Virus record (IMG/VR): IMGVR_UViG_3300005805_000235 | Coordinates: 1 to 35,922 of that record | Direction: 5' to 3' (one strand) | Source of the DNA: a virus | Taxonomy: Duplodnaviria > Caudoviricetes | Length of the DNA stretch: 35,922 bases | Shown: piece after piece, positions 154 to 35,922 of the stretch | Layout of the letters: each line of letters opens with the position of its first letter | How positions within the stretch are numbered: the first letter of the stretch is position 1 | Notes under the pieces: generated by a model | Seen by the model: only the letters and a program-made list of their open reading frames with translations | Databases searched by the model: none | Told to the model about the DNA's origin: nothing | Made by a program: the position numbers and the translations under genes

Positions 154-3100
154 ATCGCAATAACAATCCATAAATCTAATAATTTTCCAAAAATTTATGC
201 CTTTAGAACCGTCTCCACCAGGATAATATTTATCAAAAATAGCCTCTACATATTCACCGGGTATTGCTGGTGTGCCACGACTTTTATTAAGAAACATATT
301 ATGAAGATCAACTACTCCAGCAATATCGTATAGTGTCGAAGATTTTGCTTTACATGGTGTAAAAAATGCTGGACACTCACTAATATTACTTAATCTTACC
401 TCAGTGGCATTTGCTGATCCACAAGGATTAAGAGGATAATCAAGTTTAAAATATTTATTTTTTGGTTGATTATTATCGTGATCTAATATAATGTATTTAT
501 TATCATTATAATATGCATATACGATAGTATCAATATATAATTCTTCATTTAAAAAATCATAAACAGTAATTTTTGCAGATTTTAAATTGGATCCTATATC
601 TTCTCCTTTTGGACCAATAATTTTATAATCATCATAAAAAGTTGCATCACCAGACTCTGGGTTTATTAAAACAGCATTAGCAGAACCCATAGCGCTTAAA
701 TCTTCTAATAATTTAGCTACAACAATTCGTTCTTGTGGAGGAGATACCCATACTCCTCTATCTCTATCAAATCTCAGGTCAATAGGTCCAACAGGCCAAG
801 AAGCTGGGTTATCTAACCAATTGGACATAAATGCATTTTTAGTTTTATTATTAAAAATTCCATCTTCAGCAGAAGATACGTTATCTGTTATATTTGGTAT
901 CGGCTTATTTTGTGTGTCATAACCCCAAGATTGTAAAACCAAAGGACCTCTTAATGCAAAAAAACCAAAATCTGTCTTAGTTTGTCTCACATCTGAGAAT
1001 GTAATATCTTTAATACTATCTCCAAAAGATAAATAGAAAATATTCTTGGCTTCTGTGGTATTTGATTTTCTATCATCCCAATCATTTAGAATTGCTGTAC
1101 TTAATATTGGATTTAAATATTTCTGATTAATAGATAAACAATTAGATTGTGATGAATTGCTAGATAATATAAGCGGAGGCATGGAGGGTCTAGATTTACT
1201 TAAACAAGTAATCTTATTCCAAGATTGACAATATCTTGGAAGTTTATTGGTTCCGTTGTGTTTTCTTCCTTCTGTAGATACTGGGGATATAATAGCATCT
1301 AAAGACATTACTGCTGTAGCTTTATATTTTTCTTGATGATAAGATGCTTCTATAAAATATTTATGACTTAAACATGTTTCATATGTTTTTTTAGTATAGC
1401 TAGAAAATCCATTAGTAGCCTCGTTTAGTGATGATGGTGAATAATTACATATTTCTTGTCTGCTAGGATCATATTCTTCTGGACTTTGTGGAGAATCATA
1501 TATACTACCCTCGCCGAGATCAGCGTCTAGATATCCTCCTACCAACACAAAACCAGGACTAGGTGCATTAATTGGTGCTTGGGCATTATTATTAGGATTT
1601 ACAACAAACTTTAATTTACCTTTAGCTATATTAGAATTAAGATTAGCTGCTAATGTTAATGTTTTTCTTCTTTCACTTTTAATTTGTTCAACAACTTTTG
1701 ATCTAATTTGAGTTATTTGTTTAACCCTATCAGCTAATGCTTGACCATATTGACCAAATTTAGACACAGCTGTTTTAAATGAATAGTCTGTAGTAACACC
1801 ATTAGCTCCATATGTAACATTAATACTATCTAAAAGAATTCCAGCATTTAAAAAATACTGTATACTATATCCTGGTGGTTCAGCTAAAGTAAATGATCCT
1901 GTTTCTTCTATATTGCTTCCTCTTAATCCTATTTGTGCTAATGATTGTCCTACCATATCCATATTGCCCCAGCCTCCAAAATTCCAAGGATTTAAATCTG
2001 ATATAATATCAACCTTGGTAGAGCCAATAGGGCCTTTAGTTGCTGTCCAAGGTCCATAAACATAAATATTACTTCGCAAAGGAATAACAATACCTTGAAA
2101 TACTCCTGCTACAGGATTAATACGTAATAAATTAATAGTACTATTATCACTAAAACCCTTTCCATCCTTAGTCATTTCATCAAAAATTGCAGGCTTAAAT
2201 AAACCAGCTAATGCTGTCATACCATTATTTAATAAATTACCATTATTAATATTAACAATCATTGGTATAGTACTATCAAGATGTATTAATAATTCACCAT
2301 TATTCGTTCTAGGATTGATATGAAATTCGCCATCTCCAACGCTCATTTTTAAATAAAGTGTTTTATTCTTAACTAAGCATGAACTAGGATTGATACTAGC
2401 TGTATTAAATTTAAAATTCTGAGGTTGTGTATTAATAGTTCTTTGAGTTACTTGGTCAATATTAGAATCAACAAATCCAGATATCCTGTTATCAGATGTT
2501 TCAAATAAGAATGTTTCAACCCAGGTTTTTAATCCTCTAATTTGTTGTGATTGTGTAATACTAGGAAATCCAGAATCAGCAGGAGAGTCTGACAAAGCAA
2601 ATTCTCCAGTGTCTCCTCGTATAATTTTAACATTAGATCTTGGATAAGCGCAAACACCATTAAGGGGCACTAGCCATTTTTTACCATAATACTCATCTAT
2701 AAATGATTTAAACCAATCAAAAGCTGTTTGATATTTTATATTAGCTTCTGAAAAAGCTGCTTGACCAACAAGATTAGCTAATTCTGTTAATTTTTCTTTC
2801 CAATCTTGTGTATTATTTGCTCCGGTTAAAGCTGTCCATATTATTATCGCCTGGTTAAGCATCTGTTGATTAGCTATATTAAGAAAGTCTAATAATTTTC
2901 TAGATAAACTATTAGCATTAGCTGGCTGCAAACCCCATGCCATCCACATATTATAACTACCTGCAATTATAATTTCTTCTTCACTAATTTCAAACATTTC
3001 ATGAGGAAATCCTAATACTTGTTGTAATTGTTGTGTATTAATTCTAACTCTAAAATTTGGTCCACTAGCCCTAATAACTTGACCATTAGTATCGTATCCT

Positions 3101-31631: not shown

Positions 31632-32448
31632 TTTTATTAAGCATAACTTCTGGTGTTAATATAGGAATGTCTACATTACCATCTTGATAACTATGATATT
31701 GTTGTAATTGTTCTCTTGCTTTATCCGTGGCCATATTAAGAATAACCATTTCTCTTCCTTCTTTTTCTCTAATTTCTTCGTCTTCTAACATACGTATTAA
31801 TCCCACCCAACTACTTTTACCATCTTCTATTCGTTTGATTCTTTGCTCTCTTGTGGCTTTAAGATCTTTGCTTATCTTTTGTTGTTCAGTAAGAAGCTTG
31901 GTATACTCATTGGTGTAACTTGCTATACTATTTCGCGCAAAAGTTAATTGAGTTTCTAAATTAGCCAATTTTGGAATATCTCTCTGGTCTTCTGGTTTAC
32001 TATAAATATCATTAATAACCGCTTGAAGTTTTTCAGTTTCTTCTATATGTCGCTTACGTTCTTTCATGCTTCTATTAATAAGAATATCAATAGTAATAAA
32101 TTGTTTAATTTGAAGTTCTTCAGCTGGCAAAACGTCTTCTCTAAATTGCTTGATAAGATTTATCCAAATTTCTTCAAAATAATCTAATTCACCACTGTGC
32201 TCATCAAATTGCTTAGTAATTTCGTGCCAAAAACTTTTGCTATGTAATTTGGTGCGTAAAGTTTCATCAGTATCATCATGAGATAATAATAATTTTTGTT
32301 CTGTTATGTATCTCTTAATTGGTGCAGATGATCTGTTAAGATTTTCAGCAATTTGGTCAATAGTTAATAAAGATACATTGTCTCTGATAAATTTTTCTTC
32401 GTCTAAACTAAGCTGTCCGCGTTTTTTAGGTGAATTAGGTGATTTCAT
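31624..32448 (-). CDS. Probable terminase small subunit (N-terminal HTH plus coiled coil, 274 aa)
   Basis: HTH-like LTIDQIAENLNRSSAPIKRYI, long helical body, upstream of terL. Confidence 0.5.
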   Translation of the reverse strand: MKSPNSPKKRGQLSLDEEKFIRDNVSLLTIDQIAENLNRSSAPIKRYITEQKLLLSHDDTDETLRTKLHSKSFWHEITKQFDEHSGELDYFEEIWINLIKQFREDVLPAEELQIKQFITIDILINRSMKERKRHIEETEKLQAVINDIYSKPEDQRDIPKLANLETQLTFARNSIASYTNEYTKLLTEQQKISKDLKATREQRIKRIEDGKSSWVGLIRMLEDEEIREKEGREMVILNMATDKAREQLQQYHSYQDGNVDIPILTPEVMLNKNE

Positions 32449-33082
32449 GATCTTTTAATATTTTATGAATTTCGTTAATAAGTTTTTTAAGGTCACTCTT
32501 TATAACTTTACTACCACCTATCATTTTTAAAAAAATAGGGCGATTTTTAATACTAATATTTTTATCAATAATATTAATTATTTCTTTATTAGATAAGTTA
32601 TTTAAAAAATTATCTTGAGATAGTTCTGATGCGTTTTCAGCAATAACATCAATACCTATTGGTCTCATAATATTTTTTTTATTATCATTTCTTTTAGCCC
32701 AACTAAAATATAATGAGCAATCATTTTTATTCTCAAATTCTGTACAAACTTTATTTTTAGTATCAAATAATGGACATGTTAAACAAGGCTTGTCTGGTCT
32801 TTGATAGTTGTCTCTTTTGTAATTAAAGAGACGATTTCTAACATGAATCCACAGAAAATTTTCTAATGGGCGACTGTTATCATAATTTTTAAGTCCTTCC
32901 AGAGCAAATATTGCTGCTTGTTGTTTCATATCTTCGTGACTATGATATCCAAATTTAAATTTATATCCTAATTTTTTACTAATTTTTTCCCAAACAGATA
33001 TAAAATCTTCTTCTTTAATATTATGTGGTAGATTCTGTGGAGTTATCTTTGGCTTTTTGGTTTTGTTTATTTTTTTCTTCAT
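32435..33082 (-). CDS. Sigma70-family region-2-like protein with a four-Cys insert (215 aa)
   Basis: EDMKQQAAIFALEGLKNYDNSRPLENFLWIHVRNRLFNYKRD resembles sigma region 2.2-2.4; followed by CLTC-x9-C-x8-C. Confidence 0.7.
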   Translation of the reverse strand: MKKKINKTKKPKITPQNLPHNIKEEDFISVWEKISKKLGYKFKFGYHSHEDMKQQAAIFALEGLKNYDNSRPLENFLWIHVRNRLFNYKRDNYQRPDKPCLTCPLFDTKNKVCTEFENKNDCSLYFSWAKRNDNKKNIMRPIGIDVIAENASELSQDNFLNNLSNKEIINIIDKNISIKNRPIFLKMIGGSKVIKSDLKKLINEIHKILKDHEIT

Positions 33083-33203
33083 TTAATATTTCCTGTAAGT
33101 TTTTATCACACTCTTGTGTTAGTTCATACTCACTAACAATATTTTCACAAGCTACTGTTTTTAGTGTGGATGAAGTTAAATTATTAATTTGTTCATTTTT
33201 CAT
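33021..33203 (-). CDS. Hypothetical small acidic protein (60 aa)
   Basis: AAGGT upstream of ATG; GTGTAT motif about 50 nt upstream; overlaps the next gene by 62 nt. Confidence 0.45.
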   Translation of the reverse strand: MKNEQINNLTSSTLKTVACENIVSEYELTQECDKNLQEILNEEKNKQNQKAKDNSTESTT

Positions 33204-33212
33204 ATTTGTACC

Positions 33213-33240
33213 TTGACCAGAATTTTGTTCTATTTATACT
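33213..33240 (+). promoter_or_regulatory. Sigma70-like promoter for 33286..33498
   Basis: TTGACC-16 nt-TATACT. Confidence 0.5.
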
Positions 33241-33254
33241 ATTATAGTAGGATA

Positions 33255-33260
33255 ATACAC
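33255..33260 (-). promoter_or_regulatory. Putative late promoter motif GTGTAT at the head of the minus-strand operon
   Basis: CGTGTATTATCCTACTATAAT about 50 nt upstream of the first minus-strand ORF. Confidence 0.45.
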
Positions 33261-33285
33261 GTTTCGCAAACAAAGGAGCTTATTA

Positions 33286-33498
33286 ATGTCAAAAACATAT
33301 AAAAAATGGTCAAAAGAAGAGCTTGAATTTATTATTAATAATTCGTCATCTATGAAGGACGATGAAATCGTGTCGTACCTAAACAAAACGGATAGTACTC
33401 GATCTATCACTATTGGAATGGTTCGTAGACAACGAAGAAAACTTAATATTGTGAAACCAAGAGGACGTAAGCCATCTGTGAAAACTGTTGAGCAGTAA
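33286..33498 (+). CDS. Small Myb/HTH-like DNA-binding protein (70 aa)
   Basis: AAGGAG RBS; KKWSKEELEFI...DDEIV..L...RSITIGMVRRQRRKL; AT-hook-like PRGRKP tail; own terminator. Confidence 0.75.
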   Translation: MSKTYKKWSKEELEFIINNSSSMKDDEIVSYLNKTDSTRSITIGMVRRQRRKLNIVKPRGRKPSVKTVEQ

Positions 33499-33524
33499 GG
33501 TTTGTCAATTATAAATAAAGTGAG

Positions 33525-33563
33525 AAAGAGCGGTAATGTAAAAGTTATCGCTTTTTTTCTTTT
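33525..33563 (+). terminator. Rho-independent terminator
   Basis: AGCGGTAAT-GTAAAA-GTTATCGCT followed by TTTTTTCTTTT. Confidence 0.75.
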
Positions 33564-33690
33564 ATGGGGTAAAATTTATCGATTATAATAAATAAAGGGG
33601 TTGTATTCATAAGTGGAACTATTAACAAAAATGCGTCTTTAAAGATTTATATAAATAATAGATTCATTGCATATTCAAAAACTAGTTATA

Positions 33691-33798
33691 ATGCTACTGC
33701 TAATAGTTATAGTTTCAGTGGTATTTTGGGGCGACAATTCTTTGTTAGAGGATGGAATGTGGTATCTATCAGAAATCCTATTACGGAGTATCTATTAG
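33691..33798 (+). CDS. Possible 35-aa membrane peptide
   Basis: MLLLIVIVSVVFWGDNSLLEDGMWYLSEILLRSIY; hydrophobic N-terminus, but no clear RBS. Confidence 0.3.
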   Translation: MLLLIVIVSVVFWGDNSLLEDGMWYLSEILLRSIY

Positions 33799-33956
33799 AT
33801 TACAAGTTTGTTAGAAAAATTATATAAATATGGCTATTAAACTGGCCAATTATATATGGGTTGCTTACTATGTTTGTACCACCGCCCCATTTTTGGGGTA
33901 AAACCCCTCTATGGTGGGGAAAACAAAAAAACCCCCCATAGGTGGGGAACAGCCGC

Positions 33957-33972
33957 AGCAAAAATCGTGCCA
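33957..33972 (-). promoter_or_regulatory. Sigma54 (RpoN) -24/-12 element
   Basis: Minus strand TGGCACGATTTTTGCT, an exact match to TGGCACG-N4-TTGCW. Confidence 0.75.
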
Positions 33973-34025
33973 AAAAAATCGAGCGGCGAAACTTTCTCCA
34001 ATGGCAATTTTTCTATTTCTTTTTG

Positions 34026-34053
34026 TTGACAATGCCGATATCCATGATATAAC
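34026..34053 (+). promoter_or_regulatory. Sigma70-like early promoter P1
   Basis: TTGACA-ATGCCGATATCCATGA-TATAAC (16 nt spacer, extended TG), with a T-rich UP-like tract upstream. Confidence 0.75.
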
Positions 34054-34075
34054 AATGGAAACGGAGAAAATGACA

Positions 34076-34186
34076 ATGATTTTGCTCGAAATTAGGATTC
34101 TTGAATCCTTGATTGGTATGTTGCGGCGAAATAATTTGGATGCGGCAAAATGGAGAATATTTACCGATACGCTGGAAAATATCTAA
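34076..34186 (+). CDS. Small hypothetical early protein (36 aa)
   Basis: GGAG at 34063-34066, ATG at 34076 (alternative 34070); directly behind P1. Confidence 0.45.
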   Translation: MILLEIRILESLIGMLRRNNLDAAKWRIFTDTLENI

Positions 34187-34195
34187 TTTTTTTTC

Positions 34196-34223
34196 TGGAC
34201 AAGCCGATCATATAATGTATAAT
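34196..34223 (+). promoter_or_regulatory. Sigma70-like early promoter P2
   Basis: TGGACA-AGCCGATCATATAATG-TATAAT, preceded by a T-tract. Confidence 0.7.
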
Positions 34224-34265
34224 CGTGGCATGATGATAACGAAAACCCAAATGGAGAAAATGAAA

Positions 34266-34496
34266 ATGACTACTACGATCCAGCCCGTTTCAGGAATGTA
34301 TATCAAGGCCGTTCGGAATGATGGTAGGATTTTTGAGGGCCAGGTAGAAAATGTCCGCGAAACCTACAAAGGTACGTTGGTAGTAATCAAGAGTCACGCG
34401 AATTATGCCGGAGCATATCGTGGTGAAGTGAATTATGGTTCAGTCTATCTCGAAAATTGTTCGACTGTGACGCTGGACGACTTCCCCCTCTCGTGA
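34266..34496 (+). CDS. Small beta-barrel-like (SH3/Sm-like) early protein, RNDGRIF family copy 1 (76 aa)
   Basis: GGAG at 34253-34256; start moved downstream of P2 (alternative 34260); paralog of 34961..35176. Confidence 0.7.
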   Translation: MTTTIQPVSGMYIKAVRNDGRIFEGQVENVRETYKGTLVVIKSHANYAGAYRGEVNYGSVYLENCSTVTLDDFPLS

Positions 34497-34540
34497 GGGG
34501 TAGACCGGCGACAATGGTACTTTGAAAAAAGGGGAAAATC

Positions 34541-34738
34541 ATGGTATGGTATCCTGAAATGATGGTAGCGGTTCCGGTGAACAAATGGATAGGCGAATGG
34601 ATTCGTAGGGGGTCGCACCCCTCATATAGGGGGGAGTTGGCTTCTCAACTTCGTTTGATTCGCAAGAGGCATGGAACCCCCCATGCGAGGGGGTGGGTTA
34701 GACATCTAGACTACTTGGGGGCATACCCCCTTAAATAG
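34541..34738 (+). CDS. Small basic hypothetical protein (65 aa)
   Basis: GGGGA RBS-like sequence; Arg/Trp-rich; three CCCC-N8-GGGG palindromes lie in or overlap it. Confidence 0.5.
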   Translation: MVWYPEMMVAVPVNKWIGEWIRRGSHPSYRGELASQLRLIRKRHGTPHARGWVRHLDYLGAYPLK

Positions 34739-34768
34739 GGGGTTTATACCTCTATACCTCTAAAGAGG

Positions 34769-34882
34769 GGAGACTGCCAAAATGGCAGGCCGGGCCGCCA
34801 AACTGCCAAAATGGCAGGAGCAGCAAATGTTGTGCCAAAACCTCTGCCAAATTGGCATAGCAAATCTCATGCCACAAAAAAT
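34769..34882. repeat. Regulatory module copy A: three CTGCCA-N3-TGGCA(G) palindromes and two minus-strand sigma54 elements
   Basis: Palindromes at 34774-34788, 34803-34817 and 34844-34858; TGGCACAACATTTGCT at 34822-34837 and TGGCATGAGATTTGCT at 34859-34874. Confidence 0.9.
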
Positions 34883-34906
34883 CTTTTTTATTCTTATTTT
34901 TTTTTC

Positions 34907-34934
34907 TTGCATTGACGATATTCTAAGGTATAAC
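34907..34934 (+). promoter_or_regulatory. Sigma70-like early promoter P3
   Basis: TTGCAT-TGACGATATTCTAAGG-TATAAC, preceded by long T-tracts. Confidence 0.6.
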
Positions 34935-34960
34935 CAAAGCATAAGAAAGAGAGAAAGAAA

Positions 34961-35176
34961 ATGGAAATGCGAAATGGTGCTGTATTTCCCGGTCGTTCGA
35001 TTCGTGCTATGCGAAATGATGGTAGGATTTTTGTTGGTAAGATTGTAAAGGTTGCGGCCTATCTTACTACTGATAAGGTAAAGAGGCCGGGAGATACTAT
35101 GGTAGTAGTTCAAAACGGCAATAATCATCGTTCAATTTATCTTGGAGATTTGACCGATTGGTATGTATCAGAATAG
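34961..35176 (+). CDS. Small beta-barrel-like early protein, RNDGRIF family copy 2 (71 aa)
   Basis: IRAMRNDGRIFVG...TMVVVQ...SIYL matches 34266..34496; directly behind P3. Confidence 0.75.
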   Translation: MEMRNGAVFPGRSIRAMRNDGRIFVGKIVKVAAYLTTDKVKRPGDTMVVVQNGNNHRSIYLGDLTDWYVSE

Positions 35177-35198
35177 TAATACAGAAAGGTAATATACT

Positions 35199-35330
35199 AT
35201 GAGCGAGTTTGAGCGTATTATCAACGACACTATGCAAGCCTTTGCAGACTATAATAATTTCGACCATAATAATGGTATGGAATTAGAGGAGATCGACGAC
35301 GTTCAGGTTAATTTGGAGAATGTAACATGA
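35199..35330 (+). CDS. Small highly acidic protein (43 aa)
   Basis: AAAGGT RBS; MSEFERIINDTMQAFADYNNFDHNNGMELEEIDDVQVNLENVT; ATGA-coupled to the next ORF. Below the ORF-track cutoff. Confidence 0.65.
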   Translation: MSEFERIINDTMQAFADYNNFDHNNGMELEEIDDVQVNLENVT

Positions 35331-35461
35331 TATACTGGAATGTAACAAATAATAGTAAGGATCGGTATAGCGTGTGGATGAATGGTAAAGTTATTGCGGA
35401 ATATCTTACATTCGACGATTGTTACAATCTTGTTATGCAAATGAAGGGATATAGCAAATGA
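35327..35461 (+). CDS. Small hypothetical protein (44 aa)
   Basis: GGAG RBS; MIYWNVTNNSKDRYSVWMNGKVIAEYLTFDDCYNLVMQMKGYSK; ATGA overlaps at both ends. Confidence 0.65.
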   Translation: MIYWNVTNNSKDRYSVWMNGKVIAEYLTFDDCYNLVMQMKGYSK

Positions 35462-35685
35462 GCACGGTACACGGTATGGTTGTTGATAATAAAACTCCCG
35501 TTTATAACTATAACTGGCTTTGCCAGAAAATGCAGAATCGTGAACGTGTTTGTATTCGTTATAATCTTGGACAGATTTACGGTATCATAAATGGTATACG
35601 GCCCGAAGATGGTAGCGGCCGACACTGGCTTGTTACTATTTATGACAATGGTAATAGTAGTGAGATTTATGTAAGAGCAGAGTAA
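35458..35685 (+). CDS. Small hypothetical beta-rich protein (75 aa)
   Basis: AAGGGA RBS, ATGA overlap; ends just before repeat module B. Confidence 0.7.
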   Translation: MSTVHGMVVDNKTPVYNYNWLCQKMQNRERVCIRYNLGQIYGIINGIRPEDGSGRHWLVTIYDNGNSSEIYVRAE

Positions 35686-35707
35686 TATTACTGTAACAAT
35701 GCCGCAA

Positions 35708-35905
35708 GGAGACTGCCAAAATGGCAGGCGGCGCCGCCGAACTGCCAAAATGGCAGACTAACGTAAGCAATGTATGTATCAGCCGATCCTATCGGCTGAC
35801 AATAATGACAGTCAGCCAGCCAGAATGGCAGATCGCCCGCGAAAACTGCCAAAATGGCAGATGTAGCAAATCTCATGCCAGAGCAAATACTGTGCCACAA
35901 AAAAT
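35708..35905. repeat. Regulatory module copy B: four palindromes, two minus-strand sigma54 elements and a hairpin insert
   Basis: Palindromes at 35713-35727, 35742-35756, 35817-35831 (degenerate) and 35846-35860; TGGCATGAGATTTGCT at 35865-35880 and TGGCACAGTATTTGCT at 35882-35897. The first 49 nt match module A at 46/49. Confidence 0.9.
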
Positions 35906-35922
35906 AATTTTTCTACCGATTT

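Follow-up and report, generated by a model that had tools for sequence, protein, structure and literature searches.

An array of sigma-54-type boxes in helical register with early sigma-70-type promoters in a group of tailed phages

Many of the sites bound by sigma-54 (RpoN) in bacteria have no known job (PMC4591121). Here we analyse an array of sigma-54-type -24/-12 boxes that lie behind sigma-70-type promoters in the early region of an uncultured tailed phage from a lake, at the right end of the 35,922-nucleotide record IMGVR_UViG_3300005805_000235 (Duplodnaviria; Caudoviricetes). This whole contig is hereafter referred to as the window. Boxes that point against the early genes are termed anti boxes, and those that point with them co boxes.

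Several described systems share part of this layout. In the dmp system of Pseudomonas putida, the sigma-54 promoter Po and the sigma-70 promoter Pr are divergent and non-overlapping, and binding of integration host factor (IHF) and sigma-54 holoenzyme at Po raises Pr about fourfold without an activator (PMC5175336). Po/Pr resembles the phage module in having IHF and enhancer sites and a weak sigma-70 partner; it differs in that an operon is driven by Po, 264 bp separate the two +1 sites and helical phase does not matter to the effect (PMC5175336), whereas the phage anti boxes are gene-less, lie 31-70 bp from the -35 in helical phase with it, and are repeated through the early region. In Escherichia coli, closed complexes at sigma-54 boxes also act on nearby sigma-70 promoters with NtrC-type help, but where tested in vitro such boxes overlap the footprint of the sigma-70 enzyme, with repression as the result (PMC8743547, PMC4551910), while the phage boxes lie outside the -35/-10. 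The silent conserved sigma-54 sites of E. coli are likewise bound yet mostly inactive, and eight intergenic ones face away from their neighbour genes; they are, however, scattered over the chromosome, and the text of that paper examined holds no repeated module or phasing (PMC4591121). The sigma-54 chaperone promoters of Planctomycetota and Bacteroidota (PMC12316311) share both the box pattern and the palindrome of the phage. In hosts, as described below, the palindrome stands upstream of the box and a gene follows, whereas the phage palindrome lies across the start predicted for the anti box. Among phages, Pseudomonas phage YuA has a sigma-54-like promoter, P015 (PMC10914365), but this is a lone sense promoter, unlike the gene-less boxes arrayed here behind sigma-70 promoters. 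It is the nearest phage case in the literature searched; no phage with the present layout appeared among the papers listed by these searches, which covered few subscription journals. The parts of the module are all of known kinds; their inverted, phased and repeated arrangement in a phage is new. With dozens of natural variants holding a gene-less box in helical register with a sigma-70 promoter, regulation of a neighbour in cis by a closed sigma-54 complex, and the direction of that effect, become testable on a 150-bp fragment.

Results

Sigma-54 boxes and palindromes in the window

A sequence-only reading of the window had picked out five minus-strand 16-mers as co-oriented sigma-54 elements. 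All five are present, each opposes short plus-strand genes with no credible open reading frame (ORF) behind it, and the close pair formed by boxes 4 and 5 is as that reading described it (Table 1). The pattern TGGCA-N5-TTTGC has six exact matches in the 35,922 bases, five of which lie within 33958-35897. When up to one mismatch is allowed the count rises to 11, whereas shuffles average 2.25 and none of 100 reached 11. An origin of the boxes by chance or low complexity was rejected on these shuffles, on the fixed spacing in relatives and on whole-genome counts compared with expectation. The sixth exact match (2928-2942, minus strand, inside an ORF of 1347 amino acids) is probably due to chance. 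The same reading had set the boxes back-to-back with the promoters P1 and P3, which is the case for box 1 with P1 and for box 3 with P3; a partner for boxes 4 and 5 would lie past the end of the contig. In a near relative (L079/G004), the spacings found are 32 and 53 bp.

Two kinds of element in the same stretch had been overlooked. Seven 15-bp palindromes with a TGCCA-N3-TGGCA core are interleaved with the boxes, with pairs 29 bp apart. They stand downstream of the window boxes, 2-6 nt past the -12, the upstream palindromes being about 800 bp off; the activator-site position typical of sigma-54 promoters (~50-150 bp upstream) is therefore not occupied. Seven C4-Nx-G4 hairpins are also present. 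As ordinary terminators these were rejected, as 159 of 179 miss a T tail on both strands; such hairpins close many cassettes in 34 related loci and the window.

A search of 33000-35922 against Rfam gave no match near its gathering score, with one weak L20-leader match far below the cut-off. Predicted antisense transcripts from three of four starts are no more stably folded than shuffled sequences (z -1.2 to -1.7), and the value at the fourth (z -3.7) is due to an inverted repeat near 35782-35804. This strong repeat (35782-35804) is built on the motif GCCGAT, which also occurs within the P1 and P2 spacers.

Boxes and module across related phages

Relatives were found with the sigma-like gene that opens the packaging block; 80 of 181 related stretches were kept, which together with the window gave 44 non-redundant loci. 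In these loci TGGCA-N6-TTGC occurs at 147 sites on the early side (294 kb) and at 4 on the late side (451 kb), and any other box spacing gives at most nine sites on the early side. The flanks, which were not part of the search, were compared with the general sigma-54 consensus: T stands before TGGCA in 121 of the 147 sites, Y and R are found in 144 each, and A/T follows TTGC in 135. A flanking consensus of this kind is visible in E. coli site tables (PMC4591121). The sigma-54 identity proposed from the window alone is thus upheld, with the N6 spacing fixed in relatives and the unsearched flanks following the sigma-54 pattern, and the scan returned early-side enrichment and a conserved -24/-12 distance together. 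Co-orientation, by contrast, is no rule of the clade: 95 of 144 strict boxes point against the early genes and 49 with them.

A box is present in 25 of the 28 loci that have at least 5 kb of early DNA. Three complete relatives have 8, 5 and 9 strict boxes against an expectation of at most 0.17, and all of these are gathered at one edge of the early region, which is GC-richer and ~15 kb long; five further complete genomes have 1-7 boxes each, 3 of their 19 boxes lying elsewhere. Boxes are restricted to the first 5-8 kb of the early region. G004, which matches the window early region at 97-98% over two stretches, carries 8 boxes and 20 palindromes. The order of the repeated unit is hairpins, palindrome pair, boxes, A/T tract, sigma-70 promoter and short genes. 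The palindrome pair is found in 10 loci and is replaced in 22 by a 29-bp CGTAAG...CTTACG palindrome; within the stretch examined, no long locus carries both types. We take the arms of the 29-bp palindrome to resemble IHF boxes, and refer to it as IHF-like.

Only 5 of the 95 anti boxes lead to a ribosome-binding site and ATG. The core of the TGCCA-type palindrome starts 2-7 nt past the -12 C of the anti box in 20 of 27 cases, which places it on the DNA to be melted, and the IHF-like palindrome lies 7-17 nt past it in 20 of 46. A terminator follows 10 of 95 anti boxes, versus 5 of 95 on the other strand. By contrast with the anti boxes, five co boxes in four relatives have an ATG 32-43 nt past the -12 with no -35 between, and look like true sole sigma-54 promoters of early genes, which supports RpoN as the reader of the boxes. 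RpoN domains, Fis-type helix-turn-helix (HTH) domains and HU/IHF proteins were found in none of the four complete relatives scanned (in G004, 111 of ~160 ORFs). Nor do these four relatives encode a sigma-54 activator: matches to Sigma54_activat are partial only, and the one in G004 is RuvB.

Helical phasing to promoters with a weak -35

Within 120 bp of a called -35 lie 77 of the 95 anti and 38 of the 49 co boxes. The distances from the nearest box to the -35 cluster at 32/43/54/64 bp for anti and at 27/37/48/58 bp for co boxes. With spacers clustered at 70% identity, Rayleigh R at 10.5 bp is 0.68 for anti boxes (27 clusters) and 0.67 for co boxes (17), and none of 2000 permutations was as high. 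The phase is kept in both palindrome-type and IHF-type phages, and also when a plain promoter pattern is used, with a control motif giving R 0.10. The distance from box to next start codon is unphased (R 0.15), so the register is to the promoter. Two of the box-promoter spacers are composed of 11-bp repeats. In the window, boxes 1 and 3 are in phase (53 and 32 bp).

Promoters that bear a box form a distinct class. A perfect -35 is found in 21 of 76 promoters with a box versus 113 of 192 without, while a perfect -10 and a 16-bp spacer are commoner with a box. Compared within each phage, box-bearing promoters have the weaker -35 in 23 of 29 phages and the better -10 in 24 of 25. The DNA upstream of box-bearing promoters is A/T-richer (0.74 and 0.69 versus 0.60). 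Anti boxes lie at least 31 bp upstream of the -35 and none overlaps the -35/-10, the A/T tract being the only shared element.

Further phased elements occur in the IHF-type phages (L003-L078). In 16 of 16 cases, exactly 21 nt separate the end of a TGTCAA-Nx-TTGAC palindrome from the -35 that follows; a short CCTTAC/GTAAGG palindrome precedes the -35 mostly by 11 or 22 nt.

Likely host and its sigma-54 toolkit

The closest named cellular relatives of the G004 DUF1552 protein are Gemmataceae (66-67%), and G270 is its best match among 121 class genomes, which suggests a Gemmataceae-like planctomycete as host. In the family of G270, RpoN is encoded in 37 of 41 genomes, so that the predicted host family does have rpoN, and activators in 41 of 41. 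Upstream of hsp20/groES in this family, the box is present in 18 of 57 regions (control 2) and the palindrome, with up to one mismatch, in 19 of 57 (control 3). The hosts have a median of 21 strict boxes; their likeness to the phage boxes rests on shared pattern searches.

A scan of genome contigs for paired palindromes (8 of 64 parts) gave at least 120 loci, 24 of them titled Planctomycetota. From 40 chosen loci, 48 of 67 neighbouring ORFs were compared with Pfam, and 11 of the 16 Planctomycetota palindrome-pair loci in this set flank hsp20, dnaK, groEL or clpB. In an independent sample of the phylum, chaperone genes adjoin 11 of 20 single-palindrome loci. Of 26 host pairs, 25 have the palindrome upstream of the box, 21 of them at 52-143 bp, which is the standard enhancer layout. 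Its core is common to the NtrC site TGCACCAnnnTGGTGCA (PMC8743547), and sigma-54 control of chaperones has been predicted in Planctomycetota (PMC12316311). The palindrome is thus a candidate heat-shock enhancer of Planctomycetota.

Two repeats were seen in passing. In the Planctomycetia genome G006 (for example L452-L471), a dispersed repeat of ~130 bp joins the same palindrome to an IHF-like palindrome, and the exact palindrome 15-mer occurs 42 times. The host-family genome G343 has many copies of one identical sigma-54-like 15-mer, which are probably part of a mobile element.

A proposed parked sigma-54 polymerase and its alternatives

RpoN is quite probably the reader of the boxes. We tentatively favour a model in which host sigma-54 RNA polymerase docks at the boxes and, while in a closed complex, boosts the neighbouring promoter with its weak -35. 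Host RpoN would bind the boxes and a host NtrC-family activator the palindromes. The protein on the palindrome would cover the melting region of the anti box, and because of this the anti box would mostly stay closed. The parked sigma-54 enzyme might then serve as a phased architectural partner of the sigma-70 enzyme, and the first genes could thereby be tied to host sigma-54 and to the stress state of the host. Poor -35 hexamers and phased upstream sites are typical of activator-dependent promoters. Boosting is favoured because of this resemblance and because sigma-54 enzyme with IHF raises Pr; a local effect on the neighbouring promoter is preferred to decoy, entry and antisense roles because of the helical phasing and the link to a weak -35. 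A fuller version, possible but doubtful, is that the parked sigma-54 polymerase would itself be a face-of-the-helix-dependent sigma-70 activator, set in an inverted gene-less module rebuilt from the host heat-shock toolkit (RpoN box, activator palindrome and IHF site). By this means a clade of large planctomycete phages might let its first-injected genes read host stress without a phage-encoded regulator.

Several observations weigh against boosting by a docked enzyme. The P. putida effect is independent of phase and mainly needs transcription (PMC5175336), and the parked sigma-54 enzyme is described as repressing in E. coli (PMC8743547, PMC4551910). Box 2 of the window (69 bp) is off phase, as is one box of the 1-nt pair in the near relative (49 bp). 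Three of the 28 long loci are without a box, and only 83 of 407 called promoters have one. In palindrome-type phages, to which the window belongs, the link to a weak -35 is slight (perfect -35 in 8 of 19 versus 16 of 28). The host assignment rests on one phage gene of one relative, and across whole genomes of the G270 family a loose form of the palindrome is scarcely more frequent than controls (365 versus 294). Finally, the loci are related and their modules arose by duplication, so the counts of boxes and promoters are not independent.

That a parked enzyme damps its neighbour is unlikely. Held by an activator at the palindrome, such an enzyme would compete for the shared A/T tract and damp or delay the early promoter until the host state changes. 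E. coli RpoN holoenzyme, helped by NtrC, competes with RpoD (PMC8743547, PMC4551910), and the A/T-richer DNA upstream of box-bearing promoters would suit such competition. However, the boxes stand clear of the -35/-10, whereas the E. coli cases tested in vitro overlap it, and weak -35 hexamers suit activation better. It is slightly less likely again that the anti boxes are activator-fired divergent promoters, whose leftward transcription would silence the upstream cassette through antisense RNA or collisions, or would stimulate the sigma-70 promoter through negative supercoils. Topological coupling has been demonstrated for Po/Pr (PMC5175336), the five gene-leading co boxes look like genuine promoters, and box 1 reads into a minus-strand terminator-like hairpin. 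Yet in the anti boxes a palindrome closely follows the -12, opposite to the arrangement in hosts, terminators after anti boxes are few, and supercoil coupling needs no phasing; that the natural spacings of the phage keep phase argues against phase-independent coupling of the Po/Pr type, as a matter of spacing and not of a functional test. The point of the sequence-only reading that no gene follows the boxes is borne out for most anti boxes; the antisense switch-off that it raised is weakened in that the predicted anti-box start is overlapped by another site.

That reading had also put forward a DNA decoy and an aid to genome entry, neither of which needs helical phasing to a sigma-70 promoter or the link to a weak -35. 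As a decoy, the boxes and ~20 palindromes per early region would titrate sigma-54 holoenzyme and the heat-shock activator off host chaperone and protease genes. G004 carries its 8 boxes and 20 palindromes beside a host median of 21 strict boxes, and contig depth hints at two copies of the early region, but in 22 loci the IHF-like palindrome takes the place of the enhancer-like one, which only 10 have; we regard a decoy as improbable. Entry is less probable still. Stable complexes on the first-injected DNA would act as a ratchet, for which the confinement of boxes to the first 5-8 kb of the early region and the depth hint of a long terminal repeat can be cited, but placement at the first-injected end presumes an unmapped genome end. 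Moreover, closed sigma-54 complexes are no roadblocks in E. coli (PMC4591121), which disfavours a roadblock role of the boxes in general.

A phage protein could read the TGGCA half-sites of boxes and palindromes in place of RpoN, which is about as improbable as the decoy. The candidate is the 70-amino-acid HTH protein encoded ahead of P1 (Table 1), found in 78 of 80 loci. Its profile weakly matches the C-terminal HTH of host RpoN (probability 55%, pairwise E 1.2e-4), but both arginines of the RpoN box are replaced in the alignment. The fold nearest to its model (pLDDT, a model confidence score, 86) is that of the GcrA DNA-binding domain (Z 7.1, root mean squared deviation 1.5, 48 aligned); RpoN matches (Z 4.7-4.8) rank 30-32 among generic HTHs, and all matches are below Z 8. 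Foldseek gave no match at E < 0.001 and a PDB sequence search none. Furthermore, hosts deploy the same motifs in the standard sigma-54 layout. The protein is a candidate phage regulator of sigma-70 promoters. Its C-terminal tail is AT-hook-like.

Gene setting of the array

The window, a whole contig, derives from a tailed phage. Left of 33.1 kb the genes form a minus-strand block, with the terminase and the sigma-70 region-2-like gene among them; beyond 33.9 kb, GC climbs from ~30% to 43% and short plus-strand genes follow the sigma-70-type promoters P1, P2 and P3. The best identity of the terminase in the records searched is ~25%, and the phage appears to belong to a group without a cultured relative among them. 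Contig depth in the early versus late region is 34 versus 11-15, 23.5 versus 9-12 and 30 versus 14 in three runs of one study, one of which may be the source of the window, with the step falling at 33.9-34.7 kb. As contig depth does not equate to copy number, these values are no more than a hint of an early region present twice or a long terminal repeat.

Table 1. Positions of boxes, promoters, palindromes, hairpins and genes in the window.
Feature	Position	Strand	Remarks
Sigma-70 region-2-like protein	32435..33082	-	First gene of the packaging/structural block; anchor for finding relatives
70-amino-acid helix-turn-helix protein	33286..33498	+	In 78/80 loci; nearest fold GcrA DNA-binding domain; considered as rival binder
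Three C4-Nx-G4 hairpins	33883..33947		Edge of the GC-richer early region; outer one with a minus-strand T run
Sigma-54 -24/-12 box 1	33957..33972	-	53 bp upstream of P1 -35; predicted +1 at 33946 within a C4/G4 hairpin
Sigma-70-type promoter P1	34026..34053	+	16-bp spacer; -10 ending in C; consensus match only
Sigma-70-type promoter P2	34196..34223	+	Without upstream box
Short early gene after P2	34263..34496	+	No family match
Four further C4-Nx-G4 hairpins	34484..34742		End of the first cassettes
Palindrome pair	34774..34817		29 bp start to start; motif same as likely host enhancer site
Sigma-54 box 2	34822..34837	-	69 bp from P3 -35, off the common phase; palindrome core starts 6 nt past the -12 C
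Single palindrome	34844..34858		Between boxes 2 and 3
Sigma-54 box 3	34859..34874	-	32 bp upstream of P3 -35; palindrome core starts 2 nt past the -12 C
Sigma-70-type promoter P3	34907..34934	+	Imperfect -35; 16-bp spacer; A/T tract upstream; below trained-profile threshold
Four short early genes after P3	34961..35685	+	No family match above cut-off
Degenerate sixth box	35704..35718	-	Its TGGCA doubles as a palindrome arm
Second palindrome pair	35713..35756		29 bp apart
Third palindrome pair	35817..35860		First copy with 2 mismatches
Sigma-54 box 4	35865..35880	-	Palindrome core starts 6 nt past the -12 C
Sigma-54 box 5	35882..35897	-	1 nt from box 4; partner promoter expected beyond contig end

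Among the early genes of the window, 34263-34496 and 34961-35176 have a common 41-nt repeat (78% identity) and resemble paralogues. G004 (L285, L290-L292) encodes a ribosomal L7/L12-like early protein, volactin, bacterioferritin, a SET domain, ClpP, PhoH and DUF1552. G001 has 10 tRNA genes and G002 has 8 together with a transfer-messenger RNA, most of the tRNAs lying within the early region.

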